A DNA stretch of 24,000 nucleotides, from contig NZ_RPOH01000017.1 of NCBI RefSeq assembly GCF_003818135.1, forward strand, positions 28,670-52,669. The letters are read 5' to 3'. The notes under the pieces were generated by a model. The model searched no databases. It was not told the origin of the DNA and saw only the letters and a program-made list of their open reading frames with translations. Shown piece by piece: positions 4,165-23,524 of this stretch. The stretch comes from Buttiauxella warmboldiae (GTDB lineage: Bacteria; Pseudomonadota; Gammaproteobacteria; Enterobacterales; Enterobacteriaceae). Position numbers and translations under genes: made by a program. Position 1 is the first letter of the stretch, and each line of letters opens with the position of its first letter.

Positions 4165-4288
4165 AAATAATAAAAGGTATGTTTTTTCATTCCATATGGA
4201 ATTCTATGAAATATAATGTTTTTTGACTGTACTGCGGGGTGAAATAGGAGTCCAGAAAAAATAGTGCGTAAGTTTACGCATTGACTGG

Positions 4289-4747
4289 TCACTTTTTAAA
4301 GTATGAAGGCGTTTCTATCAGTAGCTCAATATCACCTGTCGGTGTGCTAAGGGTTACGGATTCTTCGTTAATTCGCGCAACAGTAACATTATCAAACATA
4401 TCCAAAGACATCCCACGTCCATAGTTAGACTGCTTATTATTTATCTTCATGATTACCCATGATAAGTCGTTGTTATTACTTTGCAAAATACCTTTTACTG
4501 TAATCATCGATGCGTAAGGAAGGGGGGTGGTACGGGGTTCGATTTGAATCTCTTTTTTGGTGACAAAAAGATTTAGCGTGCCTGGTGGCGAGGTTTTATT
4601 TAGCGGTACTTCATTATAAGGCTGAGTTGGGTTTGACGTTGAAGCAACAATTTCCCACCATTGATATCCTACAATCGTTAAAAGCGTAAGGCTTAACGGA
4701 AATAAAAAATACCATGCCGAAACCGGGATTTGTGGCCATCTTTCCAT
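4289..4747 (-). CDS. Short GspC-like T2SS protein (one N-terminal TM helix plus an HR-like domain, no PDZ or coiled coil)
   Basis: 152 aa, first gene of the minus-strand gsp operon. It has an N-terminal hydrophobic helix (WYFLFPLSLTLLTIVGY). The C-terminal segment (ITVKGILQSNNNDLSWVIMKINNKQSNYGRGMSL...VTVARINEESVTLSTPTGDIELL) resembles the secretin-interacting HR region of GspC. The call rests mainly on position and architecture. Confidence 0.55.
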   Translation of the reverse strand: MERWPQIPVSAWYFLFPLSLTLLTIVGYQWWEIVASTSNPTQPYNEVPLNKTSPPGTLNLFVTKKEIQIEPRTTPLPYASMITVKGILQSNNNDLSWVIMKINNKQSNYGRGMSLDMFDNVTVARINEESVTLSTPTGDIELLIETPSYFKK

Positions 4748-4925
4748 TTGCTGCTCCTGTATAGATTGTCCTCATGGTAAAAAAGACCGCTTAGATTTTC
4801 TATGAATAATATTACTTATCGCTGCGCGTTGAAAAAGCTGACCAACGGCGGTACGGTTACTCTTGGTTACATTTTTCGCGGGGATATTTACATCTCTTAC
4901 TCTATTAACAATAAAGGGCCTTATT

Positions 4926-6448
4926 ATGAAGAAGATAATTAAGCCAGTTAGTTTATTAATACCAATTGTGTTCTCTTCTTTTGCATGGTCGCATGGATAT
5001 GTTGGAGAACATACTGGTAATAACGCTACGTCTTTAAAGCCAGGCACCCTCGCTTCAAGAAATATACTCTGCAAAACAACTATTAATGGGAAGGGAAACA
5101 TCGGATGCGGCAGCGTAATGTATGAGCCGCAAAGTCTGGAGGCTCCAAAGGATTTCCTCAGGATGCAAATGGAAATGTAATGGGGCCAGCAGATGGGCAA
5201 ATCGCCAGTGCAGGGCATGCACAATTTAATGAATTAAATGTCCAAACTTCTTCCCGATGGTATAAAAATCCCGTAAAAGCGGGCCCTGTAGCATTAACCT
5301 GGACCTTTACCGCTAAACACAAAACGGCTCAGTTTCGTTATTTTATCACTCGCGAAGACTGGAACCCCAATCAACCCCTAACGCGCATGTCTTTTGACCT
5401 TAACCCCTTCTGTAGCGCACCTTACGGCGGCCAAATTGTACCTGAAACCTTAACTCACAACTGTACTTTACCGGCACGTACAGGCTATCAAGTGATTTTA
5501 GCCGTATGGGATGTCTCGGATACCGGTAACGCATTCTATAACGTCATCGATGTTGATTTTGGGTCGGGGGCAACTTCGCCTGGCGGGGACAACACGGTGC
5601 CTGCAGCTCAGTGGACCAGTATTGGGCAGATCTCCCCGACGTTGAATCTGAAAGCCGGAGATAAAGTGACACTTCGCGTGTTTGACAGCAATGGCGAGCG
5701 TAGCGATCTGGCACAAACTCTGCTTATTAATAGCGATAGTGAAGGGAATAGTAAAACCTGGTCCTATAACCTTGCGGTTAAAGTTAATAACTCCAGTAAT
5801 GGATTAATACGAGCAGGGCAGATTAACGGCGATAAGATTGAGCCTGTATACGATACTAACAATGTCTATGCTGCCGCTAACAGCCAGATCGTTCGTACCG
5901 AAGTACAAATTGAACAGAAACAGCAGGTAGCATCTACGTTGTCGATAGAAGGCGTCGCATCCTCTATTTCCATCACCCCAGGGCAGACCTTGCCTCTGTC
6001 TGTAGGCGTTAATGTCGGAGGGCAGCCTATGGATATCGAAGCGACTGTTTTCAGCCATGATGGCAATCAGCAGGCTTATTCCAGTAAAAAAGGTGTGAGC
6101 GGTCTGCAAACGCTTAATCTGCAACTGACTAATGTCCAGACCGGGCAATATAATTTGGTCGTTGTGGGTAAAAATGCCCAGGGAGATATCATTCAAAAAA
6201 CGCAGACATTTGTGACAACTTCCTCAGCGGATAATAGAGATAATAATCCAGCATATTCTGCTGTTTTCCCTGAAGGCATTGCAAGTTATGCGGCCGGAAC
6301 TCGCGTATTACAGCCAGCAGACGGAAAGGTATATCAATGTAAGCCATGGCCGTACAGCGGATACTGCAAACAATGGAGTTCTAATGCCAGAGGCTTTGAA
6401 CCGGGTGTCGGAGATTCATGGGAAATGGCCTGGATTAAAGTCGAATAA
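4926..6448 (+). pseudogene. gbpA: GbpA-type N-acetylglucosamine/chitin-binding protein (AA10 LPMO, two middle domains, CBM5/12), disrupted by a 1-nt frameshift near 5147-5150
   Basis: The signal peptide MKKIIKPVSLLIPIVFSSFAWS is followed by the LPMO N-terminal His (HGYV...). The first frame ends at 5178-5180. The rest continues in another frame: (GFPQDANGNV)MGPADGQIASAG...WTFTAKHKTAQFRYFITREDWNPNQPLTR...GYQVILAVWDVSDTGNAFYNVIDVDF. The C-terminal YQCKPWPYSGYCKQWS...W motif is a CBM5/12 chitin-binding domain. Confidence 0.8.
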
Positions 6449-6663
6449 ATTTTTCCGGGTCGGAATGTAATGTTCCGACCCAAATTCATGCGCTGAATAT
6501 TTAATTTTTACTGAAGTCCGCCACGGGTTTTAACGGATTACTGCATCAGATGGGTTTTCATCAGGGAAATAATTTTTTGTCATGGAAAGAAAACATACTT
6601 ACGAATTAGCGGAACATATTCAGTACGTTCGTCCTTTGTTCAATAAAAGAGGAATTTACTCGT

Positions 6664-8520
6664 ATGCATATATGCAATGGTTTTAAAGCCTCCGCGATTG
6701 TGGTGGCACTATTTTCTCCAGCTGTATTGGCTGCGTCGCCGCCCTGGCAGGAGGGGCAAAGCTATAGTGCGGGGACAACGGTAAGCTTTAACGGTAAAGA
6801 GTATCAGGCTCTGGCCGCGCATACTGCGTGGCCCGGAAGCAACTGGAATCCAGCCGATTCAATAACACTGTGGAAAATACTAAATACCTCCACGGAAATA
6901 CCACCACAAGCACCTGCTAATCCAGAGACCATTAATACACCTGCCGGTAGCCAATACCCTACATGGGTAAAAGGGGCTGTTTACACGGGGGGAATGCGGG
7001 TAATTTATAATGGGGTCGTTTATGAAGCAAAATGGTGGACCAATCAGGAATCGCCTGAAGAATCAGGTCAGTGGGGAGTCTGGAAACGAATTGGTGAAGC
7101 AACGCCGCCACCGACAACAGATCCAACCCCAACCCCAACGCCTGACCCAACCCCAACGCCTGACCCAATTCCAACGCCTGACCCAATTCCAACGCCTGAC
7201 CCAGCCCCAACCACAGGAAAACAACTCGGAGCTTACTTTGCCCAGTGGGGAGTTTATGGGCGTAACTATAAGGTAAAAAATATTGATACCAGTGGTTCAG
7301 CTAGTAAGCTTACCTTTATTAACTATGCGTTTGGCAATATCTACCCGCAAAATGGTGGCTATGAGTGCGATATCATCCATCGAGCAGAAGCGGGTAATGG
7401 TGATGGTGGTGATGCTTTTGCTGATTTTTCTAAATCATTTGAGGCAAGTGAAAGCGTAGACGGTAAAGCTGACGCATGGGATCAACCGCTGCGTGGTAAT
7501 TTTGGCCAGTTGAAAAAGCTCAAAGCAAAATACCCTGATATGAAGGTGTTTATTTCGCTGGGGGGATGGAGTTGGTCAAAATGGTTCTCTGCAGCCTCTC
7601 AGACTGATGCCCTAAGAAAACAGCTGGTGAGCAGCTGTATCAATCTCTACATTAAAGGAAATTTACCGACATATGACAATGCTGGTGGTTCTGGCGCCGC
7701 AATAAATGTCTTTGATGGTATTGATATTGATTGGGAATATCCCGTCATCCAGGGGATTGGGTATAATACCGTTAGCCCTGAGGATAAACAGAATTATACT
7801 TTATTACTGAAAGAGTTCAGGGAGCAGTTAGATGCTCTGGGCGTCGCCAATAAAAAACGGTATCCACTGACCGTCGCCATTGGCGCAGGTAAGGATAAAA
7901 TAGCCGCTACTGAGCCGAGTAAATATAGTCAGTATCTGGACTGGATAAACCTGATGTCTTACGACTATAACGGCGGCTGGCAGTATGCAGACCCGACCTA
8001 TGTACCGCCTGGGTCCAGTCGGCCAAATGCCGATCCGAATGCGAAAACGAATTTCCATGCCCCGTTATTTATCGATCCTAATGCACCGGATGCATCTGCT
8101 GCAAATGGTCCGACTAACTCGGTCGACGGTGCCGTTAAAATTCTGCTTGCGCAAGGCGTTACGCCGCAGAAAATTGTTGTCGGTATTCCATTCTACGGAC
8201 GGGGATGGACAGGTGTCCCAAATGTTAGTAATGGTTTGTACCAGAAAGCGTGGCGACCGGCAGCAGGGACCTATGAAACTGGAATTGAGGATTATAAAGT
8301 ACTTAAAAATGCTGCTGGCACATTAAGTATTCACAATGTAACAAAGCAGGCATATAAATTTGATGGATCGACGTGGTGGTCTTATGACACGCCAGCCACA
8401 ATCAAAACCAAAGTTGATTACGTGAAATCCAATAAGTTGGGCGGGGTATTTAGCTGGTCACTTGATGGCGATACCGTAGATGGAGAGCTTATGAATGCGA
8501 TGGGCGAAATGCGTAAATAA
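6664..8520 (+). CDS. Secreted GH18 chitinase with two N-terminal CBM5/12 chitin-binding domains and a Pro/Thr linker
   Basis: 618 aa. It has a signal peptide (...FSPAVLA/AS) and two W/Y-rich CBM5/12-like modules (YSAGTTVSFNGKEYQALAAHTAW..., YTGGMRVIYNGVVYEAKWWTNQ). A PT linker follows, then the GH18 catalytic motif FDGIDIDWEYP. Confidence 0.9.
   Translation: MHICNGFKASAIVVALFSPAVLAASPPWQEGQSYSAGTTVSFNGKEYQALAAHTAWPGSNWNPADSITLWKILNTSTEIPPQAPANPETINTPAGSQYPTWVKGAVYTGGMRVIYNGVVYEAKWWTNQESPEESGQWGVWKRIGEATPPPTTDPTPTPTPDPTPTPDPIPTPDPIPTPDPAPTTGKQLGAYFAQWGVYGRNYKVKNIDTSGSASKLTFINYAFGNIYPQNGGYECDIIHRAEAGNGDGGDAFADFSKSFEASESVDGKADAWDQPLRGNFGQLKKLKAKYPDMKVFISLGGWSWSKWFSAASQTDALRKQLVSSCINLYIKGNLPTYDNAGGSGAAINVFDGIDIDWEYPVIQGIGYNTVSPEDKQNYTLLLKEFREQLDALGVANKKRYPLTVAIGAGKDKIAATEPSKYSQYLDWINLMSYDYNGGWQYADPTYVPPGSSRPNADPNAKTNFHAPLFIDPNAPDASAANGPTNSVDGAVKILLAQGVTPQKIVVGIPFYGRGWTGVPNVSNGLYQKAWRPAAGTYETGIEDYKVLKNAAGTLSIHNVTKQAYKFDGSTWWSYDTPATIKTKVDYVKSNKLGGVFSWSLDGDTVDGELMNAMGEMRK
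7135..7206 (+). repeat. Four tandem 18-bp repeats (CCAACGCCTGACCCAAYY) encoding the PTPDP(T/I) linker of the chitinase
   Basis: Read directly. The copies lie at 7135, 7153, 7171 and 7189. They are in frame and lie inside the CDS. Confidence 0.85.
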
Positions 8521-8898: not shown

Positions 8899-9381
8899 AT
8901 GAAACGTATTTCCCCGGAGCGTAAAGCCAGCACACTGGCAAAATTGCTGCCCCCTTACAACATGACCGTCGCGGCTGTTGCACAGATGGAAGGGATATCG
9001 GAAGCTACTCTCTATAACTGGCGTAATCAGGCTAAAACAGAGGGGAAACCGGTGCCCGGTGCAGATAAAAACAGTGAGCAGTGGCCTGCCGAAGCGCGGC
9101 TGGCGGTTATCGTCGAAACCGCTACGTTGAGCGAAGCGGAAATCGCCGAATACTGCCGTAAAAAGGGACTCTACCCCGACCAGATAATCCAGTGGAAACA
9201 GGCTTTTTTACAGGTGACTTCCGGTGATGATAAAGCGGCCCTCAGGCAAAGCCAGAAAGAAATCAAGCAGTTGAAAAAGGAACTGCTCCGTAAGGAAAAG
9301 GCGCTGGCAGAGGCGGCAGCGATCCTGGTGTTAAGAAAAAAGCTCAGGGACTACTACGGGGAAACGGACGGGGATGACTGA
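8899..9381 (+). CDS. IS3-family transposase OrfA (HTH plus leucine zipper)
   Basis: 160 aa. The HTH segment reads VAAVAQMEGISEATLYNWRNQ. The C-terminal heptad-leucine region reads IKQLKKELLRKEKALAEAAAILVLRKK. The canonical A6G frameshift motif lies near the 3' end. Confidence 0.85.
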   Translation: MKRISPERKASTLAKLLPPYNMTVAAVAQMEGISEATLYNWRNQAKTEGKPVPGADKNSEQWPAEARLAVIVETATLSEAEIAEYCRKKGLYPDQIIQWKQAFLQVTSGDDKAALRQSQKEIKQLKKELLRKEKALAEAAAILVLRKKLRDYYGETDGDD

Positions 9382-10958: not shown

Positions 10959-11255
10959 TCACCTCCAGGGGGAGTGTCTGAGGGTATCCTGGGACTGGCT
11001 GAGCACACGGATCACTGTAACAACAGAATGCGAGGGCACGAAATAGATCATGTGCTGCTCAACCGGCAACGAAAAGATATTTTCTCCAAGCTCTGCCCGG
11101 TGCGTACCGATGTCATGGCTGGCCAGAATGTCGAACACCGCAGCCAGCCTGCCGATATACGCATCCGCTTTTTCCAGCCCAAACTGCCGGAAACTGTAGT
11201 TCCAGATGGCCTCCAGATCCGCTTCAGCTTTCGGTGTCAGCTTAATTGCTTTCAT
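10959..11255 (-). CDS. parE: ParE-family type II toxin
   Basis: 98 aa. MKAIKLTPKAEADLEAIWNYSFRQFGLEKADAYIGRLAAVFDILA...YFV..SHSVVTVIRVL is the ParE/RelE-superfamily pattern. It overlaps the upstream antitoxin gene by 14 nt. Confidence 0.85.
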   Translation of the reverse strand: MKAIKLTPKAEADLEAIWNYSFRQFGLEKADAYIGRLAAVFDILASHDIGTHRAELGENIFSLPVEQHMIYFVPSHSVVTVIRVLSQSQDTLRHSPWR

Positions 11256-11502
11256 CTGCCACTCTGGCTCTTACCTTCTTCAGGAAGGCATCCTGCTCCC
11301 AGGGCATAGCGTCACCGCTGCTTATTCCTTCGGCCAGAAGATCACGAAGTATCTGTAGACGCGATTCTGCCTGTTTTTCACGAAGCAAACGCAGCCCATC
11401 ACGCATCACTTCACTCTGTGTCCGGTAATCGCCAGCCTGAACCAGTGAATCAATAAACTCACGCAGTTCATCTCCGACATCGACCGTCATTGTCCGGGCC
11501 AT
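11242..11502 (-). CDS. parD: ParD-family (RHH, COG3609-type) antitoxin
   Basis: 86 aa. MTVDVGDELREFIDSLVQAGDYRTQSEVMRDGLRLLREKQ...LRDLLAEGISSG is the ParD/CC2985-type pattern. A strong RBS (AGGAGG) precedes the ATG. Confidence 0.85.
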   Translation of the reverse strand: MARTMTVDVGDELREFIDSLVQAGDYRTQSEVMRDGLRLLREKQAESRLQILRDLLAEGISSGDAMPWEQDAFLKKVRARVADESN

Positions 11503-11769: not shown

Positions 11770-11830
11770 GTTGCAATAGATTTTGTATCTTTTAACAGTT
11801 TCACAGAATTCGGATCTCCGGAGAAAAGGA
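11770..11830 (+). promoter_or_regulatory. Copy 1 of the conserved leader element (GTTGCAAT...TTGTAT...TTCGGATCT..GAGAAAAG), 166 bp upstream of the RHH gene ATG
   Basis: It aligns by eye with 15356-15425 and 19130-19180. The TTCGGATCT core lies at 11809-11817. Confidence 0.5.
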
Positions 11831-11858: not shown

Positions 11859-11954
11859 AATGACATGATGTCATTAAATTGACCGCTTAATAATTAAATG
11901 ATTTACTTCACTTCTGATTAATTCATTTACTGAAACTGTATTCAGAGAATACAG
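11859..11954 (+). promoter_or_regulatory. Promoter/operator region of the RHH-KAP operon
   Basis: AATGACAT-G-ATGTCATT (11859-11875) is a perfect 17-bp palindrome. It is followed by TTGACC (11879-11884), a 17-nt spacer and TTTACT (11902-11907). CTGTATTC-AGA-GAATACAG (11936-11954) is a perfect 8-bp inverted repeat just before the RBS AGGAG (11965-11969). Confidence 0.4.
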
Positions 11955-11974
11955 CCATCCTGACAGGAGCCCAC

Positions 11975-13063
11975 ATGCTGAGTCAGCTGACCCTGCGCTT
12001 TCACAAGAAACTGATCGAGGCACTGAAAGTACGTGCCGGTCGCGAAAATACCTCGGTCAACGCCCTGGCCGAACGCTTCCTCGATGACGGTCTGAAGTCG
12101 GCTGCCACCGGCGACGGTTATTTTCAGCTGATCGCCGATCCGGATGCCACGATCCGTCAGCTGTACCGGCATATCATTCTTGGCCAGACCTTCGGCACGT
12201 CAACGTTCTCCCGCGACGAACTGCGCTTTCTGCTGGCCTACGCCCGGGAGGCCTTCATATGCGGGCATGGCAGACTTGCCACTCTCCCGGCGCTGCGCAC
12301 TCTACTGGAGATCACCCGCGACCTGCTGGCATGGCAGGTCGAGCATGATCACCCGGTGGATGCCCACTACCTGAAGGGGACCTTCCGGCTGCCCGGCGAA
12401 AACTGGGTCGAGGAATTTGACGATTTCCTTGCGACACTGCGTCCGGTCATTGATCAGGGCTATGCAGAGCACCTGCTACGACCACTGGGGAGCGACTGTT
12501 TTACGCTGGCTGACTTTCCCGACGCCGTGCTGGCGGAGATTTTCACGCTCCCTCGACTGAAGGGCATTTTCCCACTGGTCCTGCGCGGGCTGGGCTGGAC
12601 GGATGAAAAGGCCGCGGCTCTGGCGCAAGAGCTACGCCCGCTTATCCCGGCCGTGACGGAAATCCTTGAGGCCGGCACGCTGCGTCTCGAGATCCGCGTG
12701 GACGGCCAGCATCCGGATCAGCGTCCGGGAGCCTGGTATGACACCCCGAAAATACATCTGATCATCACAGGCCAGGAGTTTGTGGTACCGGTGGACTGGG
12801 CAACTTTCACCGAACTGCTGGGTCTGTTCAGCCTGTATGTCCGCTTCCCGGAGGCGCTGGCACACGGCCATCATGGTGAACGCGTCATGTTCTCGCCGCC
12901 AGGCCATGTCATGGCGGACGGTTTTTTTGGCCTCGACGGGCTGCGGATTTTCCTGCCAGCAGAGGGGTTTGAGACGCTGGTTCGGGAGCTGGTAACGCGC
13001 AGCAGCGAAGGCTCGCTGGCTGACGCCCTGTCCGGGCTGCGCTGCCTGTACGGAGATCTGTGA
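11975..13063 (+). CDS. Hypothetical protein with an N-terminal ribbon-helix-helix-like domain fused to ~315 aa of unknown family
   Basis: 362 aa. The N-terminus LTLRFHKKLIEALKVRAGRENTSVNALAERFLDDGL fits the Arc/CopG RHH pattern (beta strand, helix, helix). It has a good RBS, and the stop lies 1 nt before the next gene's ATG. The block is GC-rich and antisense ORFs in it are spurious. Confidence 0.8.
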   Translation: MLSQLTLRFHKKLIEALKVRAGRENTSVNALAERFLDDGLKSAATGDGYFQLIADPDATIRQLYRHIILGQTFGTSTFSRDELRFLLAYAREAFICGHGRLATLPALRTLLEITRDLLAWQVEHDHPVDAHYLKGTFRLPGENWVEEFDDFLATLRPVIDQGYAEHLLRPLGSDCFTLADFPDAVLAEIFTLPRLKGIFPLVLRGLGWTDEKAAALAQELRPLIPAVTEILEAGTLRLEIRVDGQHPDQRPGAWYDTPKIHLIITGQEFVVPVDWATFTELLGLFSLYVRFPEALAHGHHGERVMFSPPGHVMADGFFGLDGLRIFLPAEGFETLVRELVTRSSEGSLADALSGLRCLYGDL

Positions 13064-13064
13064 T

Positions 13065-15290
13065 ATGGCTGATATCAACGCAATGAGGCTGGATCAGTCC
13101 GTCACCTGTCCGGAACAGGATCGTTATGGTTTCCGCTATGTCGCCGCACAGCTGGCACAGTCTGTTCAGGCTATTGGCCGCGAAGGAAGCGCTGTTATCG
13201 GCATTGAGGGGGCATGGGGTTCCGGAAAAACTAGTCTGCTGAACCTGCTGCGTGCGGCACTGGATGAGCAGAAAGAGGACAACACGTTTGTCCTGAGTAT
13301 CTCTCCCTGGCTTGATGGCAGCGACACCAGTCTGGTGGAATCGCTGCTGATACCGGTGGCAGGTATCATTGCCGCAGAGGAAGAGCGCCGCCTTCCCCTC
13401 GAAGAGCGGGAAAGCCTCAAAAAGAAAAAGGGGCTCACCCGGACAGCCCGGACCCTCATGGAATATACCCGAGCGACGGCCCGCCATCTGGCTCCGCTGG
13501 CTCAGGCCGCGACTGTGATCCCGGGCGTACCTGATGCGAGCGGGGCGCTGAACGCGCTATCGGAAACCAGCTGGTTAAAAGAAAAACAAAAAACCGCAGC
13601 GGAGATGCGTACCGAAATCGCAGAAAAAATTGTCGCAATGGATCTCAGTTTTATTATTCTTCTTGATGATCTGGACAGACTGGAGCCTGCGCAGGCTGTG
13701 GAAGTTGTCCGTCTGGTCAAATCCGTCGCCGATTTTCCCCGCTTCCGCTACATACTCTGTTATGACAAGACGGTGCTGGCGCAGGCCATCAAGAAAGGAC
13801 TGGGCGTGGAGGATGGCGAACTTTATCTGCAGAAAATCGTGCAGATTTCCTTCAGCCTGCCAAGACCGGAATCCTTCGATCTGCGCCGGGAATTTCTGGC
13901 CGGCGTCGTAGGGTTGTATGAATCCGTTAACGGAATGTCTCCGAGCGAAGAGTTAATAGATGAGTTAAACAGGGTAACAGATATTTATGGTGCAGCCCTG
14001 AACACCCCCCGTGAAGTCCATCTGGCACTGAATAATCTGCGTTTTAGGTACAGCGGAATACGCGATTACGTCTTTCTGCCGGATCTGTGTTTCCTGCAGC
14101 TTATCCGTACCACCAATTCCGGGCTGTATAACTGGACAGAAGAATATCTGACAGAGCGGGCCATCGTGGAATCCGGGGACGGCCGTGTCAGTGAAGAGGA
14201 GCAAGAACAGCTGGCACAAAAGCTGGGCGAATACTTGTCCAGATTTCGCTCTTCAGAGGCAAAATCTGCAATCTCCCTGCGCCACTGGGTTCCGGGTATT
14301 TCGGGGTATCAGGCTGATAATCTGAAATTGTTCGCTCAGGCGGGCGAGGAAGAGAAAGCGATGATGACAGCCAACCGCCGCCTCGGGAGCACCGCATACT
14401 GGCGTTATTACTTTGCATTTTCCTCACCGCAGAACGTTCTGCCGCCAGCGTATTTTGATGATCTGTTCCGTAAAAGTAGTAATCCCGAAAATTATCTGTC
14501 AATGGCCCGGGAGTTGTTAGGCCGGATCAACAGCAATGGTGTGTCCTCACGTACCTGGTTTGAGCATATTCTGAGCCAGATGACACGACCGATGATAAAC
14601 GAGCGTACAGCATCAGAGTGTTCTGGTCTGCTGACATTCTTCTTTGAAGAGGGCGATGAGATACACGCACGATTCCGACAGAGAAATCACTGGTTTTCCC
14701 GGTATGATCTTGATGTCAACAGCGTGGCTGATCGTCTTCTGAAAAGAATGCTGGATGATGACCGGGCTAAGACGATGAACACCCTGCTTTCACTGACGAT
14801 GAAAGGAACCGCCCTGGTCTGGATTGCGAATTATATCCGCGATTTGCTGTGGCAGAATGGGCTGGCTGGTAACCGGCCCGCCTCAGAGCAGGAACGCGTG
14901 CTGACAAATGATGAGTTGAACCTCGTTCGCAGCAAGTTTAGTGAGCGCCTGAATAATAATAAGCTGATATTGCAGCTTCTGCAGGGAGGTGAGCTGGGAG
15001 GATTCGTCTGGGCCTGTCAGGATATTGCAGGCCAGGAAACACTGATTGCCTGGATTTCACAACACGCTACCTGTGACGAGGTATTTCTGACCTTATTGCT
15101 GAGTCTGCGCTCTCACTGCATCTCCAGCGAGTCCGGACACTATCTATCCCTGAAAATAACGGAAATCGCTCATTTGTTCGGGGGAGAGAAAGAACTGCGC
15201 GAAAGGCTAAGCCGTATTGAAGCTGAAGGTCAGTTTCCTGATCAGACGGATGAAATCAATAAAGCTATCATGCTCAGCAAATCATTCTGA
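13065..15290 (+). CDS. KAP-family P-loop NTPase (apparently soluble)
   Basis: 741 aa. The Walker A motif is VIGIEGAWGSGKTSLLNLL. The Walker B motif is SFIILLDDLDRLEPAQAVEVVRLVKSVADFPRFRYILCYD, the hallmark KAP arrangement. A long helical C-terminal region follows. I see no convincing TM helices in the Walker A-B insert. Confidence 0.9.
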   Translation: MADINAMRLDQSVTCPEQDRYGFRYVAAQLAQSVQAIGREGSAVIGIEGAWGSGKTSLLNLLRAALDEQKEDNTFVLSISPWLDGSDTSLVESLLIPVAGIIAAEEERRLPLEERESLKKKKGLTRTARTLMEYTRATARHLAPLAQAATVIPGVPDASGALNALSETSWLKEKQKTAAEMRTEIAEKIVAMDLSFIILLDDLDRLEPAQAVEVVRLVKSVADFPRFRYILCYDKTVLAQAIKKGLGVEDGELYLQKIVQISFSLPRPESFDLRREFLAGVVGLYESVNGMSPSEELIDELNRVTDIYGAALNTPREVHLALNNLRFRYSGIRDYVFLPDLCFLQLIRTTNSGLYNWTEEYLTERAIVESGDGRVSEEEQEQLAQKLGEYLSRFRSSEAKSAISLRHWVPGISGYQADNLKLFAQAGEEEKAMMTANRRLGSTAYWRYYFAFSSPQNVLPPAYFDDLFRKSSNPENYLSMARELLGRINSNGVSSRTWFEHILSQMTRPMINERTASECSGLLTFFFEEGDEIHARFRQRNHWFSRYDLDVNSVADRLLKRMLDDDRAKTMNTLLSLTMKGTALVWIANYIRDLLWQNGLAGNRPASEQERVLTNDELNLVRSKFSERLNNNKLILQLLQGGELGGFVWACQDIAGQETLIAWISQHATCDEVFLTLLLSLRSHCISSESGHYLSLKITEIAHLFGGEKELRERLSRIEAEGQFPDQTDEINKAIMLSKSF

Positions 15291-15327
15291 TTTTTCCAGT
15301 TCTGCCATTTTATTAACAATCTCCAGG

Positions 15328-15354
15328 GAACCTGCCCAGCAGGTTCTCTTTTTC
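15328..15354 (+). terminator. Rho-independent terminator of the RHH-KAP operon
   Basis: GAACCTGC-CCA-GCAGGTTC forms an 8-bp perfect stem followed by TCTTTTTC. Confidence 0.7.
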
Positions 15355-15355
15355 A

Positions 15356-15425
15356 GTTGCAATCATTGTTGTATACCTGAATAACCTCCGTCTTTTGGGG
15401 TTTTCGGATCTGAAAAAGAGAAAAC
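15356..15425 (+). promoter_or_regulatory. Copy 2 of the conserved leader element (contains GGGGTTTTCGGATCTGAA at 15397-15414), 138 bp upstream of the next ATG
   Basis: GTTGCAATCATTGTTGTATACC...TCCGTCTTTTGGGGTTTTCGGATCTGAAAAAGAGAAAAC. The 18-mer is identical to 19151-19168. Confidence 0.55.
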
Positions 15426-15540: not shown

Positions 15541-16230
15541 ATGAACACACCAACCCAAAAACGAAACGGTAATGATCGTTCCTCCACTATGCATAATTTT
15601 ATGGACAACAGCATTGCTGCAGAGCGTCTTCAGAATTTTTTTCAGGACCTGGCAGAAGAAGTCCGGTCCGGTAAAACTCCGATTGTTCCTGAGAGTATGG
15701 GGAAGACCGACGCGGTTTTTACCATTGATACCATTCTGAAGTTTCTTGAAAATCGTGCAGTTAACAGCCTGACGCCGGAAAAAAAACGCCAGCAGCGACG
15801 TTTACACAGTAAGGCTCTTTTCCTTCAGACGCTGGAAAATGACGGCGGGATTTACAATTCAGCTAAAGCTGCAGAAATGGTGGGCAAGAGTAAACCAACG
15901 GTTAAAACCTGGAAAGATACCGACCAGTTGCTTGCCCTTGATATTGATGGTGAGTTTTACTACCCGGCGTTTCAGTTCACTGATGAGGAAGGGATCTCGG
16001 ATAAAGGTGTGCTCCGGGGGGTGGCCGAACTGCTGCCTATGCTGGGCAGCTTCAGTGACAGAATGAAATATTCTTTCTTTATGGAACAGAGAAATACTAT
16101 CCTCGATGGCCTGAACCCTGCAGGACGTACGTTTACCGTTGCAGACGTTCTGAAGGGCAATCCGGATGAAAAAGTGATGAATGAATTACGCCGGCTGGCT
16201 CGCAACTACGGTACACAGAACGCAGTTTAA
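15541..16230 (+). CDS. HTH DNA-binding protein resembling Xre-type antitoxins with a C-terminal DUF2384/ParS/MbcA-like toxin-binding domain
   Basis: 229 aa. The HTH-like segment is IYNSAKAAEMVGKSKPTVKTWKDTDQLLALDIDGEFYYPAFQF. The C-terminal part is RMKYSFFMEQRNTILDGLNPAGRTFTVADVLKGNPDEKVMNEL. It has a strong RBS. The function is inferred from motif memory and the neighbouring RES gene. Confidence 0.6.
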   Translation: MNTPTQKRNGNDRSSTMHNFMDNSIAAERLQNFFQDLAEEVRSGKTPIVPESMGKTDAVFTIDTILKFLENRAVNSLTPEKKRQQRRLHSKALFLQTLENDGGIYNSAKAAEMVGKSKPTVKTWKDTDQLLALDIDGEFYYPAFQFTDEEGISDKGVLRGVAELLPMLGSFSDRMKYSFFMEQRNTILDGLNPAGRTFTVADVLKGNPDEKVMNELRRLARNYGTQNAV

Positions 16231-16261: not shown

Positions 16262-16960
16262 TTATTCCTCAACAGGAATTCCCAGTTCATAAACAAGAAT
16301 ATCCGCCGCTTCCTTACCCTGATATTCAAATTGACTGAGACTTGTCTGGCTCCGGGTTGTGGCCAGACCGGTTCCGGCCGGATCGTCATGCCATAGAACA
16401 AGGCATGGGTCACCGGTGACATTTGACGGAAACTCCATTCCGTCAAACCCTGCTGAATGAACCTTTTCAGCCAGATGCTGAGTAACAGCACGTGTTGCCG
16501 TTGTCACATCATGCAACGTCAAATCACTGCCTTTAATCAGCTTACTGACCTGAAGGACCCTGATATCTTTCTCAATAACTACAGTTCCCATCATGTAATT
16601 ATTGAGGTCCGATTCCCTGAGCCCTTTTTTATGCTGAAACACTTCCTTCATTGCCGTGTCAGGTGTTCGGGCCACGTACATGGAACCATTCACACCATCA
16701 TTAAGACTGTAACGGCAATCCTCACCATTACGATTGAAAAAGACACTGCTTCCGCCGTGGCTACCGAGCTGAAGCCGGAACACCTCAGTTCCTGATGTAT
16801 CGGTCATTTCGGACCGCTGGAGCTGCTCGTCTTGCAACTTCCCGATTTTATCGAGAGCTGCCACGTCCTGTTCATTCATGCCTGCATTTACAGAAGTTTC
16901 AACAGCCTGATTAACTTCGTCGTTTAGGTTTACCTCTGATTTTAAACTCATATTGATCAC
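16262..16960 (-). CDS. RES-domain protein (putative NAD+-targeting toxin) with an acidic ~60-aa N-terminal extension
   Basis: 232 aa. The R/E/S signature is spaced as in RES toxins: FFNRNGEDCRYS...SMYVARTPDTAMKEVF...GFDGMEFPSNVTGDPCLVLWHD. The tracked start is a GTG at 16960. An ATG at 16951 is an alternative start. Confidence 0.75.
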   Translation of the reverse strand: MINMSLKSEVNLNDEVNQAVETSVNAGMNEQDVAALDKIGKLQDEQLQRSEMTDTSGTEVFRLQLGSHGGSSVFFNRNGEDCRYSLNDGVNGSMYVARTPDTAMKEVFQHKKGLRESDLNNYMMGTVVIEKDIRVLQVSKLIKGSDLTLHDVTTATRAVTQHLAEKVHSAGFDGMEFPSNVTGDPCLVLWHDDPAGTGLATTRSQTSLSQFEYQGKEAADILVYELGIPVEE

Positions 16961-17902: not shown

Positions 17903-17921
17903 ATGTAGTTAACCTTTCTGA

Positions 17922-19055
17922 TTAAGATTGCGACAGACTTTGTACACGATGAGCCAGCCGCCGCGCTTCTTCCACATCCCTGAGTTCCCTCGCTTTTTCC
18001 ATCATTTCTGTGGTTGGCTCAGGCAATTTTTCAAAAAACTCCTTAAACTGTTTTCCGACAGACTTCAGGGAAACACTGTCCGTTCTGGCTGTCTTAATAT
18101 TGGTGTAAACAAGGCGGTTAAGAGGTTTTGTCAGCTCTTTCTCTTCCATAAATCGTTTGAAGATCCAGAGATAAATATCAACCAGCTCCAGACCTGCGCT
18201 TTGCGTGCCCGACTGGAAGACAAGCGGTTCAGCCGGCATGTTCTTCATATCCATGACCGGCAAACCAGGCCCGAGTGCCCACGGCTGTTTTCGAATCTGG
18301 TAGTAAAACTCGTTCAGCTCCCGCTGGGTGGTGTTGAACTGTGATTGCTGGTCCACAATGATGTTGGCTTTTCTGTTAGGAGCCCCCAGTCGGGAGCAGA
18401 TACCGTGCAATACGAACTGAAATCCGATCATATTGGGCATGATTTGCAACTTTTCCTTGTTGGCTTTGCAGTTGTACCCCAGCCCTTCAAAGTTGACCAT
18501 CGCCCAGGACAGAGCGTCTGTAATAAGTTCAACTGAACGGGCATCACCCAGAGTATCGACTCGCTGAAGCAGCACACCACAGACCTCGTTGAAAAGAGAG
18601 GAGGAACGTCCATCATGTGCCTCGAGACGGGCACGCCATGCTTTTTCAGCCAGCTCATCATCAAACAGATTTGCCAGATTCAGCAGCAACGGATAGCGCA
18701 GTGGAGTCCAGTAGACACTCCAGGGCACCACCGGATTCAGTCCCTGATCAAACACCTGATCGAAGAACGAAATAATGGCGTGATCCCGTTTAACCACCTG
18801 CCAGACATCAAACCGTATCCGGTGCTTCTTCTGCAGTACAAGCAGTGTATCGATAACTTCATCAAGGCGGTACATGCCCAGTTCTGCGGCATGAAGGCGC
18901 TGTACGTTCAGTTTTTTCCGCAAACTGGCAAGTTCAGCTTCAGCAACCTTATCCAGGTCATCCGGAGAGGAAAGCACGCCGTAAGAAAGTACAGGCTGGG
19001 TACGGTCAAAAAGATTCGGACCGGTATGACCGGTTTCATCCACATAAAAGTGCAT
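17922..19055 (-). CDS. DUF3800-like protein
   Basis: 377 aa. The N-terminal MHFYVDETGHTG matches the (Y/F)(I/V)DE(S/T)G motif. The distal FQSGTQSAGLELVDIYLW matches the xS..S.GLQLAD motif. Both are hallmarks of DUF3800 as I remember it. The RBS AAAGGA lies 7 nt upstream. Confidence 0.65.
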   Translation of the reverse strand: MHFYVDETGHTGPNLFDRTQPVLSYGVLSSPDDLDKVAEAELASLRKKLNVQRLHAAELGMYRLDEVIDTLLVLQKKHRIRFDVWQVVKRDHAIISFFDQVFDQGLNPVVPWSVYWTPLRYPLLLNLANLFDDELAEKAWRARLEAHDGRSSSLFNEVCGVLLQRVDTLGDARSVELITDALSWAMVNFEGLGYNCKANKEKLQIMPNMIGFQFVLHGICSRLGAPNRKANIIVDQQSQFNTTQRELNEFYYQIRKQPWALGPGLPVMDMKNMPAEPLVFQSGTQSAGLELVDIYLWIFKRFMEEKELTKPLNRLVYTNIKTARTDSVSLKSVGKQFKEFFEKLPEPTTEMMEKARELRDVEEARRLAHRVQSLSQS

Positions 19056-19129
19056 TCAAATATCCTTTATCAGGCTGGAGGAAAGCGAAACGGCATAATT
19101 CGAGTGAATGTAAAACCTTCATGTATCTG

Positions 19130-19180
19130 GTTGCAAGTGTTCCGCTTATGGGGGTTTTCGGATCTGAACGTGAAAACAGA
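19130..19180 (+). promoter_or_regulatory. Copy 3 of the conserved leader element (GGGGTTTTCGGATCTGAA at 19151-19168), 145 bp upstream of the kfrA-like ATG
   Basis: GTTGCAAGTGTTCCGCTTATGGGGGTTTTCGGATCTGAACGTGAAAACAGAGAG. The 18-mer is identical to 15397-15414. Confidence 0.55.
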
Positions 19181-19186
19181 GAGCGC

Positions 19187-19270
19187 GTATGTATTTTATG
19201 TATTATTTATTCTGTATGTACTATATGTATTGTATGTATTTTGTGTATTTTTCACTCCGGTTGTACAATA
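19187..19270 (+). promoter_or_regulatory. Array of seven direct TGTAT pentamers plus the TTGTACAA palindrome in the divergent promoter region
   Basis: TGTAT starts at 19190, 19199, 19213, 19226, 19231, 19235 and 19244. A TGTAC lies at 19217 and TTGTACAA at 19261-19268. Confidence 0.5.
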
Positions 19271-19301
19271 ACCTCTTTCCCTGAAAGACCGGAGCCTTTC
19301 C

Positions 19302-19913
19302 ATGACCACGCTATCCCCGGACACCGTCCGCCGCATTGAAGACGCCGCTGCCGCCCTGATCGCTGCCGGTGTCCCGAACCCGACCAACGAGCAGGTCCGC
19401 CAGCACCTCGGCGGCGGCTCGCTGTCCCACATCTCCCCGGTGATGCGCGCATTCCGCGCCCGTCAGCGCGAGCAGGCCGCTGAACAGACCACGACCCTGC
19501 CGGCAGAGCTGGCGCAGTTGCTGACGGGTCAGCTGGGGCTGCTGTGGCAGGCGGCGGTGAAACAGGCTGAAGCCGGGGCTCTGGCGGCGCGCGAGCAGGC
19601 CGACGATGACATTGCCCGGGCCGACCAGGAGCGGGATGAGGCGCTGGCGAAAGTGGCCGCCCTGGAAAGTGAACTGGCGGTGCTGCGGGAGGTGGTGGCC
19701 GAACGTGATCGCCTGCTGCAGGAGGTGCGCGAGCTGCGCGCGGAAGTACTGCCGCTGCGTGAGCAGGTGGCCCGCCTGACCGCCACCGGCGAACACCTGG
19801 CGGCACAGCTGCAGGACACGAAAGCGGAACTGAAGGAGGCCCGGGAGGATGGCCGCGCCCTGCAGATCGAGCTGCTGGCCCTGGCACGCCATGATGGGAA
19901 GGTGAAAAAATGA
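19302..19913 (+). CDS. KfrA_N-like DNA-binding protein with a long Ala/Glu/Arg/Leu-rich coiled coil
   Basis: 203 aa. VRRIEDAAAALIAAGVPNPTNEQVRQHLGGGSLSHISPVMRAFRARQRE matches the KfrA N-terminal DNA-binding domain pattern. The remainder is heptad-like. The gene is very GC-rich, which produces three long spurious antisense ORFs. Confidence 0.8.
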   Translation: MTTLSPDTVRRIEDAAAALIAAGVPNPTNEQVRQHLGGGSLSHISPVMRAFRARQREQAAEQTTTLPAELAQLLTGQLGLLWQAAVKQAEAGALAAREQADDDIARADQERDEALAKVAALESELAVLREVVAERDRLLQEVRELRAEVLPLREQVARLTATGEHLAAQLQDTKAELKEAREDGRALQIELLALARHDGKVKK

Positions 19914-20530
19914 GACAGGAAAGAACATTACGCATACGGGCATTTCGCCGTGCGCTGGAGCTTGGCGCCGGTGAGCGGGCTGAAGAGTGCCGTCATTTTC
20001 ATCGCTGGAAAATGGAACTGAGGAATTTCCCGCACGGCAGCTGCGATTTAGCCAGCAACACACTGGCGCAGTACCTGACAGATACTGAGGGGGGCCACCC
20101 CTGCATCATTTTTATGGAAGGGAACGCAGGCTTTCAGGAAGCTGAAAACTCAACTGTCCATGGCCATGTCATCGTATTGCTGGACGGTGAGTACACCGAT
20201 CTGACGCTGGATCAATTCGAAGAATATCCGGACTACATTCCTTCCGAACCTGTCGAATCTGGCGGGCCGCTTGGTAAGCTGTTACGCAATATCATGAAGC
20301 ATGAAGACCATGTACAAACCCGCCAGGTTGATCTCGATGGTGGCGAAGAGCTGTATGCCTGGTTACGCGATACCGCCAACGAAGTGCTGGCTGCGGATCC
20401 GGAATGGCAGGCCTGGGAACAGTCTATAGCGGAACAAAGGGAAGCGGCCCTTAAGCTGTTCCCATTTCAGTCTAACATGCAGAAAATTGAGTGCGAACAG
20501 GGCCAGGACAGTCAGGAGGTTGCCAGATGA
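19910..20530 (+). CDS. Hypothetical 206-aa protein with an ordered Cys...His...Asp motif
   Basis: ATGA overlaps couple it to both neighbours. It contains FPHGSCDLASNTLAQYL ... VHGHVIVLLDGEYTDLTLDQF. I recognise no family, and a thiol-hydrolase-like triad is only a guess. Confidence 0.7.
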   Translation: MRQERTLRIRAFRRALELGAGERAEECRHFHRWKMELRNFPHGSCDLASNTLAQYLTDTEGGHPCIIFMEGNAGFQEAENSTVHGHVIVLLDGEYTDLTLDQFEEYPDYIPSEPVESGGPLGKLLRNIMKHEDHVQTRQVDLDGGEELYAWLRDTANEVLAADPEWQAWEQSIAEQREAALKLFPFQSNMQKIECEQGQDSQEVAR

Positions 20531-21333
20531 AGATTTATCATTACACTGACCTGAACGGCCTGAACGGCCTGAACGGCCTGAAGGGCATCATCGAATCAGG
20601 CTCACTGTGGGCGACGCACTTTTCCTTCCTCAATGACAGCAATGAACTGATTCACGGCATGAACTGCCTTGAGAATGCCCTGCAGCACCTGAGGGACGAC
20701 TTTAACCCGAAAACCCTTAAGTTCATCGAACAGGCACTGACGCACTTCAGAATGCACCGGGCTGTTCATGTCTATAACCTTTCTTTCTGTCTCGAACCCG
20801 ACCTGTTAAGTCAGTGGCGGGGTTATGGCAGCTCTCAGGGTGTGTGTCTGGAATTTGATGATGAAGAACTGATTGCCTCCCTGCAACTCACGCACTACCA
20901 AGTGTTTAAAAACCGGGTGATCTATACCAAAGAGGATTCCACGGTTGAAGCCCGGAACGAAATCCTCGCCTTTTTTCGTCAGCCAGAGGTTCAGGCGGCA
21001 ATAAATGCAGATGCAATGCATGAGATGATTCAGGCAACCAAACTGGCACACAGCCTGCCGCCTTTTTTCAAGAATGACGGTTTCAAAGAGGAGCAGGAGT
21101 TCCGGATGGTAATTCTCCCGGACAGACCTTTTGAGGGAGTCAATTTTCGTGTCAATGACAGCGGTCTGGTGCCATATCTGATCATTAAAGCAAAAGATAA
21201 GCTGCCACTGAAAAACATCAGAATTGGTCCCCGCAGTAACAGAGCAATGATGATGGATGGGATTTCATTCCTGTTACAGAGCAGGGGGTACACCAGTACA
21301 CGGATTTCGTTTACTGAGACGCCGTTCCGGTAA
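20527..21333 (+). CDS. DUF2971-family protein
   Basis: MKIYHYTDLNGL...IIESGSLWATHFSFLNDSNEL ... YNLSFCLEPDLLSQWRGYGSSQGVCLEF ... FKNDGFKEEQEFR fits the DUF2971 pattern. I prefer the ATG at 20527 (RBS AGGAGG at 20512-20517, ATGA overlap) to the tracked upstream start at 20491. Confidence 0.75.
   Translation: MKIYHYTDLNGLNGLNGLKGIIESGSLWATHFSFLNDSNELIHGMNCLENALQHLRDDFNPKTLKFIEQALTHFRMHRAVHVYNLSFCLEPDLLSQWRGYGSSQGVCLEFDDEELIASLQLTHYQVFKNRVIYTKEDSTVEARNEILAFFRQPEVQAAINADAMHEMIQATKLAHSLPPFFKNDGFKEEQEFRMVILPDRPFEGVNFRVNDSGLVPYLIIKAKDKLPLKNIRIGPRSNRAMMMDGISFLLQSRGYTSTRISFTETPFR
20551..20586 (+). repeat. In-frame 9-bp tandem repeat, CTGAACGGC x3 plus a degenerate CTGAAGGGC (LNG LNG LNG LKG)
   Basis: Read directly. 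The copies start at 20551, 20560, 20569 and 20578. Confidence 0.9.
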
Positions 21334-21368
21334 ACTCAATTAAGAAGTACAAACTTCAAGGGATCAGT

Positions 21369-22109
21369 ATGTTGAATAAAGTTTCACAAATTAATTTGGC
21401 CAAAATCTTGGCTGAAAAATTTAACGAAGGTGACTGGCAGGAGCTGTTTGCTGTTACCGATTGTGAAGATGTTCCGGAAGGGCTGTATAAATTCTACCAG
21501 CATGTTCACTGGGACAACCCGGAGCTGAAAGGGATGGCCATCTTTGCCATAGAAAGCACTCTGGCCAGGGACGCTGATAACCTTTCTAAAATCTGGGCGC
21601 TGGATAATGTTCAACGCTATATCAACAATGCCAATACTGAGTTATTCAATGAAATAAAGGACATTGTTAATCAGAATGGGCAAAGAAACGTTTCCGCAGC
21701 TCCAGTGAAAAATGTGAACGAAAACATTTACCAGGCTTTAGAAGATGCGGAAGTGTTGCTTCAGAAAAATGGACCACACCGGGCTTATGATCGTGTCCAT
21801 ACAGCTCTTCATGCTTCATTAAGACAAATGTGTGCAAACCATGGAATTGCGACTAATAGTACAAATAATAATGTTCCAGGATTGCTTTCCCTGATAACTG
21901 CACATCTCAAGGCGCTGCCGGATGATGGAAGAAACGAAGATGTGTTTAAAATGTTGAAGTCATCTGCCGCAATACTACATGGAATCAATAACCTGCGTAA
22001 CAATTACAGTATGGCCCATCCTACTGAAAATTTGCTTAATGAGGCCGACGCGCGTTTTGCCATAAATCTGGTTCGTTCCATTATGACTTATATTGATGAA
22101 TTGCTTTAA
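21369..22109 (+). CDS. Abi_C (abortive infection C-terminal domain)-like protein
   Basis: 246 aa. The C-terminal ALHASLRQMC...LLSLITAHLK...MLKSSAAILHGINNLRNNYSMAHPTE...ADARFAINLVRSIMTYI matches the Abi_C LRN..G.aH signature as I recall it. The RBS AAGGGA lies 6 nt upstream (spacer TCAGT). The gene is AT-rich relative to the upstream genes. Confidence 0.65.
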   Translation: MLNKVSQINLAKILAEKFNEGDWQELFAVTDCEDVPEGLYKFYQHVHWDNPELKGMAIFAIESTLARDADNLSKIWALDNVQRYINNANTELFNEIKDIVNQNGQRNVSAAPVKNVNENIYQALEDAEVLLQKNGPHRAYDRVHTALHASLRQMCANHGIATNSTNNNVPGLLSLITAHLKALPDDGRNEDVFKMLKSSAAILHGINNLRNNYSMAHPTENLLNEADARFAINLVRSIMTYIDELL

Positions 22110-22167
22110 TTTTAATAAAAATATGAGGCTCACAGCGAACAGATAGAGTATCAACGAAGAAGTGAAA

Positions 22168-22208
22168 TACGGCCAGCATTTCGAACTCTGGCCGTACTCT
22201 TATTGTTT
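22168..22208 (+). terminator. Rho-independent terminator of the four-gene operon
   Basis: TACGGCCAG-(11 nt)-CTGGCCGTA forms a perfect 9-bp stem followed by CTCTTATTGTTT. Confidence 0.7.
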
Positions 22209-22978: not shown

Positions 22979-23234
22979 CGATCTGGGTCTGGAACCGCTG
23001 AGCAACGCGCAATGTAACGACCTGCTGGAGATAATCGAAGACCGCTACGGACAAAGCAGCACCATCGTAGTAAGCCAGTTCCCGGTAGACAAGTGGCACG
23101 GTCTGATGGAGAACCCGACAACGGCAGATGCGATCCTGGACAGGCTGGTGCATAACGCGCACAGGCTGGTACTCCAGGGAGAGTCAATGAGGAAAAATAA
23201 ACCGGCAGTGGAAAGCGATGAAAAAACAGGTTAA
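22971..23234 (+). pseudogene. istB: IS21-family helper ATPase IstB, C-terminal ~85 aa only
   Basis: ILDDLGLEPLSNAQCNDLLEIIEDRYGQSSTIVVSQFPVDKWHGLMENPTTADAILDRLVHNAHRLVLQGESMRK. This covers Walker B onward. The junction with istA' lies at ~22970-22978. Confidence 0.8.
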
Positions 23235-23333
23235 AAAGCAGTAGGAAAAGTTAAGTTCCCGGTTGATCGAATGGAAGCGAATCGCTGATCGAACTTCGAT
23301 GCCAATCCGTGATCGAATAGAGCGGAATACGCA

Positions 23334-23486
23334 GTTCATCCGGCGAAGCTTATCCAGTTGCGCCTGCAGATAGTCTATTTCGCGCTCCCGGTTGCTCAGC
23401 TTTTCCTGCAGGGTGTGGATCAACGCTTCCTGTTCAGCCAGGCGCTGTTTCAGCAGAGGGATGTCGTCAGAAGAGGTGTCGTTCAT
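23334..23486 (-). pseudogene. IS66-family transposase (TnpC) N-terminal leucine-zipper fragment, truncated by the IS21 remnant
   Basis: MNDTSSDDIPLLKQRLAEQEALIHTLQEKLSNREREIDYLQAQLDKLRRM. The expected continuation (LFG..SEK) is replaced by IS21 end sequence. Confidence 0.7.
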
Positions 23487-23524
23487 AAGCCCGCATTTTA
23501 CCAGGCTTATTCTGCGACGCTCAC
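23487..23524 (-). repeat. Possible IS66-family left inverted repeat (minus strand GTGAGCGTCGCAGAATAAGCC...)
   Basis: It lies directly upstream of the N-terminal TnpC fragment, at the point where the other TnpC fragment loses homology (after GSDHGGER). It suggests one IS66-type element inserted into another. Confidence 0.35.

Follow-up and report, generated by a model that had tools for sequence, protein, structure and literature searches.

Two adjacent genes in a 24,000-nucleotide stretch of DNA from Buttiauxella warmboldiae (the window) are very probably a divergent, orthologous version of the F plasmid's pif operon (from 'phage inhibition by F'), in which pifC is followed by pifA. We identify them as such because the gene order, the protein lengths, the one-nucleotide junction, and the homology of both proteins match F. 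An earlier reading of the sequence (the original prediction) had described a defence-type module of two genes one nucleotide apart, with its own promoter region, operator, and clean terminator; the coordinates were confirmed and this interpretation was supported. It had also taken the pair for an undescribed ribbon-helix-helix (RHH)-coupled or toxin-antitoxin-like system built on a KAP-family NTPase. That part does not stand, since the second gene matches the PifA profile of PADLOC, the first encodes a protein with 78% identity to PifC, and the layout is identical to that of F. The module is real, but the system is already known and is not a new kind of system. The two genes are as follows.

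pifC, 11975-13063, forward strand: 362 aa; RHH-like segment at residues 1-41 (nucleotides 11975-12097), followed by about 320 aa
pifA, 13065-15290, forward strand: 741 aa; KAP domain at residues 26-330 and C-terminal region at residues 331-741

Correspondence with the pif operon of F

The exact proteins of the window come from an 81-kb contig of B. warmboldiae, where their annotation is generic ('transcriptional regulator' for gene 1 and 'NTPase' for gene 2). The stop codon of gene 1 (TGA) occupies positions 13061-13063 and, after one base, the ATG of gene 2 begins at 13065. In the F plasmid (NC_002483, nt 42445-45760), a 362-aa 'transcriptional repressor PifC' is likewise followed, after 1 nt, by a 741-aa P-loop NTPase. 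An ungapped alignment of 361 aa gives 78% identity between the gene 1 product and F PifC, and homologues of this product bear the name 'transcriptional repressor PifC'. The PADLOC check that the original prediction had proposed places gene 2 end to end on the PifA profile PDLC02361 (E = 1.2e-297; residues 5-738 on profile positions 3-718 of 720). The likeness to F extends to the Walker motifs of PifA, to the absence of transmembrane (TM) helices from both PifA proteins, and to an rfsF-type element about 170 nt 5' of pifC. The F pif operon is also present in the IncI1 plasmid R64.

The window operon departs from that of F in several respects. The two PifA proteins are only 43% identical (over 712 aa), which marks the window copy as a diverged allele, and residue 6 of PifC is Asn in F and Thr in the window. 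The surroundings differ as well: RepFIA, ccd, and ResD of the F neighbourhood are absent from the window, where ParDE lies upstream instead, and the convergent gene for a 'nucleotide-binding protein' found after pifA in F, R64, and Klebsiella plasmids is also absent.

Linkage of the two genes across genomes, another check suggested at the outset, was evident in PLSDB. A tblastn search with the two proteins concatenated recovered an adjacent, co-oriented pair on 960 of the 1431 matching plasmids, often under the annotations 'phage T7 exclusion protein' and 'transcriptional repressor PifC'. Neither a near-identical nor an exact copy of the window pair was found in PLSDB or in complete E. coli genomes. 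DefenseFinder lists Pif as a system composed of PifA and PifC. The original prediction had allowed that the pair might match an already named system, and this is what was found: judging from the title of Miller, Lanka and Malamy (1985), cited in PMC5696584, the pif pair has been known since the 1980s.

PifA, a KAP NTPase

Gene 2 was correctly recognized as a KAP P-loop NTPase (Pfam PF07693 KAP_NTPase, E = 2.6e-42, 145.5 bits against a cutoff of 20), and the motifs quoted for it (GAWGSGKT, IILLDDLDRLEP, FRYILCYD, and LLIPVAGIIAA) are all present. The Walker A (GIEG..GKTSLLN) and Walker B (DDLDRLEP) motifs are invariant across 12 PifA homologues. No TM-grade hydrophobic segment was detected in gene 2 by a Kyte-Doolittle 19-residue scan, a crude test with a cut-off of about 1.6 and no dedicated TM predictor behind it; the maximum, 1.42, falls on the Walker B strand. 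This agrees both with the earlier remark that gene 2 has no convincing TM helix and with the PifA literature.

The acronym KAP combines Kidins220/ARMS with PifA, and the latter is described as the family's member without TM helices (PMC13001434). Membrane KAP NTPases of the Kidins220/ARMS type have the Pfam KAP_NTPase P-loop domain in common with gene 2 but typically possess TM helices, which gene 2 lacks, as the literature says of PifA (PMC13001434). A soluble KAP protein had been regarded as a variant feature, yet solubility is a published property of PifA itself, a namesake of the family (PMC13001434). The hydropathy and the literature together thus indicate that what had been seen as a soluble KAP NTPase coupled to an RHH protein is no variant of the KAP family but its founding example.

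Two other defence ATPases were considered as identities of gene 2 and rejected. Tmn (Gao et al. 2020), the comparator chosen in the original prediction, likewise consists of one P-loop NTPase and defends against phages at the membrane. However, Tmn has been assigned to a separate family, YobI; its P-loop domain contains two TM helices, and it does not depolarise the membrane (PMC13001434). No Tmn model is among the PADLOC matches to gene 2, and gene 2 has no TM segment. QatA of the QatABCD system shows a weak likeness over the KAP-type ATPase region (PADLOC, 1.6e-12), but its NCBIfam score of 33.5 bits compares with a cutoff of 600, and there are no QatB, QatC, or QatD neighbours.

PifC and its N-terminal segment

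The first gene was said to begin with an RHH-like segment, and this has borderline sequence support: DUF6364 scores 27.0 bits (cutoff 27.3), a FitA-like RHH family gives E = 0.035, and HicB gives E = 0.085. An ungapped alignment places the N-terminus of F PifC on residues 7-35 of P22 Arc (pairwise E = 1e-4; Arc sequence verified, PDB 1arq/1par), with Q4, N6, and R8 falling on Q9, N11, and R13. In the Arc-operator structure, Q9, N11, and R13 are the base-contacting residues. The Q-x-N/T-x-R ribbon of PifC is in register with that of Arc, and PifC differs from Arc/Mnt-type RHH repressors in its additional ~320 aa; the Arc match is not significant when measured against the whole PDB.

The remainder of the protein, about 315 aa that the original prediction could place in no family, is equally without assignment here, as no NCBIfam or PADLOC model matched gene 1. 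Sequence searches of the PDB with PifC and with PifA returned no match. An AlphaFold2 model of PifC built from 30 homologues reached a pLDDT of 67.8 and a pTM of 0.59 (four of the five models were near 40), and a Foldseek search of the PDB with this model gave nothing better than E = 0.029, at a TM score of about 0.1. In the literature on F, pifC is described as the 'pif operon regulatory gene' (PMC5696584).

Putative promoter, candidate operators, and possible translational coupling

The control signals of the operon were located as follows.

Palindrome 1, 11859-11875: AATGACAT-G-ATGTCATT; perfect, with 8-bp arms, unique in the 24 kb
Palindrome 2, 11936-11954: CTGTATTC-AGA-GAATACAG; perfect, with 8-bp arms, unique in the 24 kb
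Putative promoter, 11879-11907, forward strand: -35 box TTGACC at 11879-11884, 17-nt spacer, extended -10 box TGaTTTACT at 11899-11907
Shine-Dalgarno sequence of pifC, AGGAG, 11965-11969, forward strand: 5 nt before the ATG, read from the sequence
GGAG of pifA, 13052-13055, forward strand: within the last pifC codons, 9 nt before the pifA ATG
Intrinsic terminator, 15325-15355, forward strand: stem at 15325-15349 with 11 pairs (6 G-C) and a 3-nt loop, then the T run TTTTTCAG

In F, PifC represses its own operon; it binds an operator, pifO, and is required for replication from oriV1. Palindromes of the kind seen here number seven in the whole 24 kb, and two of them lie within 275 nt upstream of pifC (P for at least two = 0.004, from shuffles). 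Both had been placed right at the ribosome-binding site. This is accurate for palindrome 2, which lies 10 nt 5' of the AGGAG in the presumed 5' untranslated region, but not for palindrome 1, which is located about 100 nt 5' of the ATG beside the -35 box. The GC-rich block in which the genes were said to sit is likewise correct in part: gene 1 has a GC content of 62%, but that of gene 2 falls from 58% to 51% along its length, and the flanks are at 40-48%.

Operators were compared across 91 pifC loci, taken from plasmids, genomes, and metagenomes, for which the upstream sequence was long enough. Of these, the 68 that encode a PifC starting with MLSQL-N-LRF all have GCTA-NNN-TAGC 44 nt before the ATG (degenerate in 2), the F-type operator sequence being ATGCTAGGTTAGCAT. 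The 23 loci with MLSQL-T-LRF, the window among them, all have TGACAT-N-ATGTCA 112-135 nt before the ATG (with one mismatch in 1), and this palindrome never occurs in Asn-6 loci. F and the window exemplify the two arrangements, with ATGCTA-GGT-TAGCAT about 44 nt before the ATG in the former and TGACAT-N-ATGTCA next to the -35 box in the latter. The residue that differs between the two operator classes is residue 6 (codon 11990-11992 in the window), which aligns with Asn11 of Arc, and its covariation with the operator type is perfect over the 91 loci, without a single crossover.

Downstream of the palindrome, the T-type loci have 3 nt, then a conserved TTGACy, 17 nt, and a conserved extended -10 box TGaTTwACT. 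It is from this conservation that the pifC promoter is putatively placed; a generic sigma-70 scan did not flag it, its -10 box being without A at position 2. The strongest candidate for pifO, the PifC operator, in the window allele is palindrome 1; as it abuts the -35 box, PifC bound there would occlude the promoter. Not all T-type loci have palindrome 2 (L002, L012-L014, and others lack it), and its role might be that of an accessory operator or of an RNA hairpin. The predicted RNA of the 5' untranslated region does form a hairpin at palindrome 2, but the hairpin reading is unsupported because the overall fold is not distinguishable from shuffles (z = -0.65).

The pifC/pifA junction, GGAGATCTGTGAnATG, is kept across loci, even where a different gene lies downstream. 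The GGAG in the end of pifC and the 1-nt spacer suggest translational coupling of PifA to pifC.

A promoter region similar to the upstream region of F pifC also precedes a 229-aa open reading frame with no family match (15541-16230, forward strand), and it contains the palindrome ATGTAT-A-ATACAT.

Pairing, exchange, and mosaic alleles

In 12 of the 17 loci compared first, pifA directly follows pifC. Elsewhere unrelated genes take its position, and these begin at the same stop/start junction directly after pifC. A 289-aa HEPN-like gene is present in L005, L009, L016, L018, L053-L055, L057, L064, and L072; its product of about 289 aa matches PADLOC PDC-S64 (E = 1e-16) and Pfam HEPN (E = 0.0046). 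A 457-aa gene (MYNNLPAL...) occupies the position in L019, L026, L028, L030-L032, and L036, and its product has no Pfam or PADLOC match. The third, a 250-aa gene in L078 and L082, encodes an N-terminal hydrophobic segment and has a weak, sub-threshold match to DUF6442. It is possible that these replacing genes are new defence genes.

The reverse situation, an intact pifA with an altered partner, is found in about 600 Klebsiella records of PLSDB, in which pifC has lost residues 1-62 (the RHH segment) together with the promoter. In one of these, K. pneumoniae p426-Vir (L098, 1507-4636), the remaining 300 pifC codons are open and end in the same 1-nt junction before pifA. The RHH-fusion partner had been described as obligate, and both the Klebsiella plasmids and the pifC genes followed by other genes contradict this.

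Where both genes are present, their relationships to the window copy are discordant. The nearest PifA alleles found are those of a metagenome contig (L017, 79.9% identity) and of Pantoea alhagi pPALTYR11Z (75.6%), both with the same pifC/pifA junction as the window. The Pantoea plasmid combines a PifA that is 76% identical with a PifC that is only 48% identical, the reverse of F (PifC 78%, PifA 43%), and the metagenome contig differs from the window in having an Asn-6 PifC and an F-type operator region. Therefore, pifC and pifA have recombined with each other. PifA is itself mosaic in comparison with the window protein: the NTPase half of L011 is 53% identical and its C-terminal half 80%, and the corresponding values for L001 are 69% and 48%. 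The GC gradient within pifA fits such a mosaic structure. As judged from these alignments, the pattern is typical of a defence sensor shuffled by recombination.

rfsF-like sites at the module borders

Three co-oriented copies of an rfsF-like element are present in the window.

Partial rfsF-like element, 11807-11826, forward strand: AATTCGGATCTCCGGAGAAA; right arm kept and left arm degenerate, at the upstream edge of the module
rfsF-like element, 15385-15411, forward strand: CCTCCG-N14-CGGATCT, at the downstream edge of the module
rfsF-like element, 19139-19165, forward strand: a fuller copy, co-oriented with the other two

The element comprises about 35 nt with inverted arms, AGATCCG-N14-CGGATCT, each with a Dam GATC site. 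It is located about 172 nt 5' of pifC in F and most other loci, and the half-site of the window aligns with it. Normally there is one element per plasmid (1768 places in 1758 PLSDB records); with three co-oriented copies in the window, pifCA and the adjoining gene block each lie between two such elements. In IncI1 plasmids, rfsF is an exchange point of whole gene sets, at 43,619/43,620 in R64 (PMC8004404; see also PMC9412624), and the R64 element at nt 43,620-43,630 coincides with this published switch point. One further locus (L015) has the element both 5' of pifC and 3' of pifA. No tyrosine recombinase gene was found in the window.

At another locus, E. coli p14EC020b (L005, 1587-3821), a pair of genes for a cyclic oligonucleotide-based antiphage signalling system (CBASS), an oligonucleotide cyclase and a 4TM effector, lies between the rfsF element and pifC. 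This CBASS pair is another cargo at the rfsF site.

These arrangements invite a wider reading that we put forward with considerable doubt. PifC, its operator, and the junction might constitute a portable control module ahead of an exchangeable 'cargo slot' next to rfsF, and the genes that replace pifA might then be undescribed abortive-infection genes. The ~320-aa region of PifC might sense an incoming foreign plasmid or phage and then lift repression, with the window allele as a Thr-6 specificity variant.

Proposed mechanism and alternative explanations

For the pif operon of the window we propose the following mechanism. A PifC dimer would bind palindrome 1 (TGACAT-G-ATGTCA) through its Arc-like ribbon (Q4-T6-R8), a step that we infer for this copy. 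Bound against the -35 box, PifC would keep transcription of pifC-pifA low, and PifA would be produced through translational coupling to pifC. During infection, a phage protein would engage the variable C-terminal region of PifA and turn on the NTPase, and the infected cell would be sacrificed. F PifA aborts infection by T7 once it senses phage proteins, with membrane depolarisation and nucleotide leakage as the consequence (PMC13001434), and the sensitivity of T7 depends on gp1.2, with the capsid protein gp10 contributing to some extent (PMC8594841). The phage that triggers the window PifA is probably not the same as for F PifA, because the two proteins are only 43% identical.

Several points weigh against this account. 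The RHH assignment of PifC is borderline, under the Pfam cutoff, and searches of the PDB with the PifC N-terminus, as a single sequence or as a profile, did not recover an RHH structure. The monomer AlphaFold2 model, a mediocre one, has a helix at residues 4-23 rather than an N-terminal strand. The covariation between residue 6 and the operator spans two linked lineages and may simply show that the promoter and the start of the gene, which are physically linked, were inherited together. At 43% identity, the function and the trigger of the window PifA may both differ from those in F. The target range of F PifA, moreover, is very narrow (2 BASEL phages), and some authors question whether its main role is phage defence (PMC8594841, PMC13552941).

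The alternative suggested by this last point is that the operon serves mainly in conflict between plasmids, with PifC as a fertility inhibitor of rival coupling proteins and, in F, an oriV1 factor, and with phage exclusion as a side effect. We consider this unlikely, although it is compatible with the identification as a pif operon. PifC of F does block the conjugation of IncP and IncW plasmids through the coupling protein (TraG/TrwB; PMC5696584), the authors who found only 2 BASEL phages affected by F PifA have proposed another primary role (PMC8594841), and pifC often occurs without pifA, in about one-fifth of the sampled plasmid rows and in several loci. However, PifA shows much greater diversity than PifC and a mosaic structure, as expected for an arms-race protein; one of the genes that can take the place of pifA encodes a HEPN-like candidate defence protein; and the window copy lies within a cluster of defence and toxin-antitoxin genes (ParDE, RES-domain, AbiJ-like).

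It is very unlikely that the two genes form a toxin-antitoxin-like pair, in which the ~320-aa C-terminal region of PifC would neutralise a toxic PifA by contact in addition to repression. The 1-nt spacer and the internal Shine-Dalgarno sequence, suggestive of coupled synthesis, are in keeping with such a pair, as is the typical occurrence of RHH domains in type II antitoxins. No functional ectopic pifA construct could be obtained in the BASEL study (PMC8594841), and the Klebsiella plasmids that have lost the RHH segment keep the C-terminal 300 aa of PifC in frame before pifA. In opposition to this, PifC is large and is described as a repressor, it matches no PADLOC or Pfam antitoxin family, and pifC is found, with an identical junction, ahead of at least three unrelated genes. 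A strict toxin-antitoxin relation is argued against by the RHH-less pifC and intact pifA of the ~600 Klebsiella plasmids, provided that pifA is natively expressed there. A classical type II toxin-antitoxin system was rejected, since the pairing is not obligate.

The original proposal of an undescribed sensor-coupled or regulated variant of KAP/Tmn type, which could appeal to the generic source annotation and to the lack of a near-identical copy in the databases searched, is extremely improbable for a pair known for decades, with a full-length PifA profile match, orthology of both genes to F, and no Tmn match.

Genomic neighbourhood

The contig carries a KfrA-like gene, toxin-antitoxin genes, and insertion sequence (IS) elements, and we infer that it is a plasmid. 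Within the window, the pif module is set among defence and toxin-antitoxin genes, namely ParDE, a RES-domain protein, and an AbiJ-like protein. Immediately 5' of the module is a pair encoding a ParE toxin and a ParD (RHH) antitoxin (10959-11502, reverse strand). On the other side, the 229-aa open reading frame is convergent with a gene for a 232-aa RES-domain protein (16262-16960, reverse strand), at which the usual Xre-RES operon layout is not evident.

A block at 17904-22193 comprises DUF3800 (reverse strand), a KfrA-like DNA-binding protein, a 206-aa open reading frame, DUF2971, and an AbiJ-like protein (Abi_C), and it is kept at 86-89% identity in many plasmids of Citrobacter, Salmonella, E. 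coli, and Enterobacter. Directly 5' of the KfrA-like gene, short repeats of the TGTAT(G/T) type (19185-19250) may be the operator iterons of that gene. At the other end of the window, 731-8520 includes plasmid-borne type II secretion genes (GspE ATPase and GspD secretin) together with genes for a GbpA-like lytic polysaccharide monooxygenase (LPMO) chitin-binding protein and a GH18 chitinase with CBM5/12 modules. Transposase fragments flank the accessory region, with an IS3-family ORF-A at 8899-9381 and an IS66-family fragment at 23184-23996 that runs past the window end. Rfam had no match in the window.

Significance

As a discovery, the finding matters little: the pif operon has been re-discovered, and tools of the PADLOC type would label it directly. 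Its value is modest and lies in the comparison, which brings together diverse, recombining PifA alleles, two ribbon/operator specificities of PifC, and other genes in the pifA position. The genes that replace pifA are cheap candidates for new defence genes, and the model of DNA recognition by PifC is testable.

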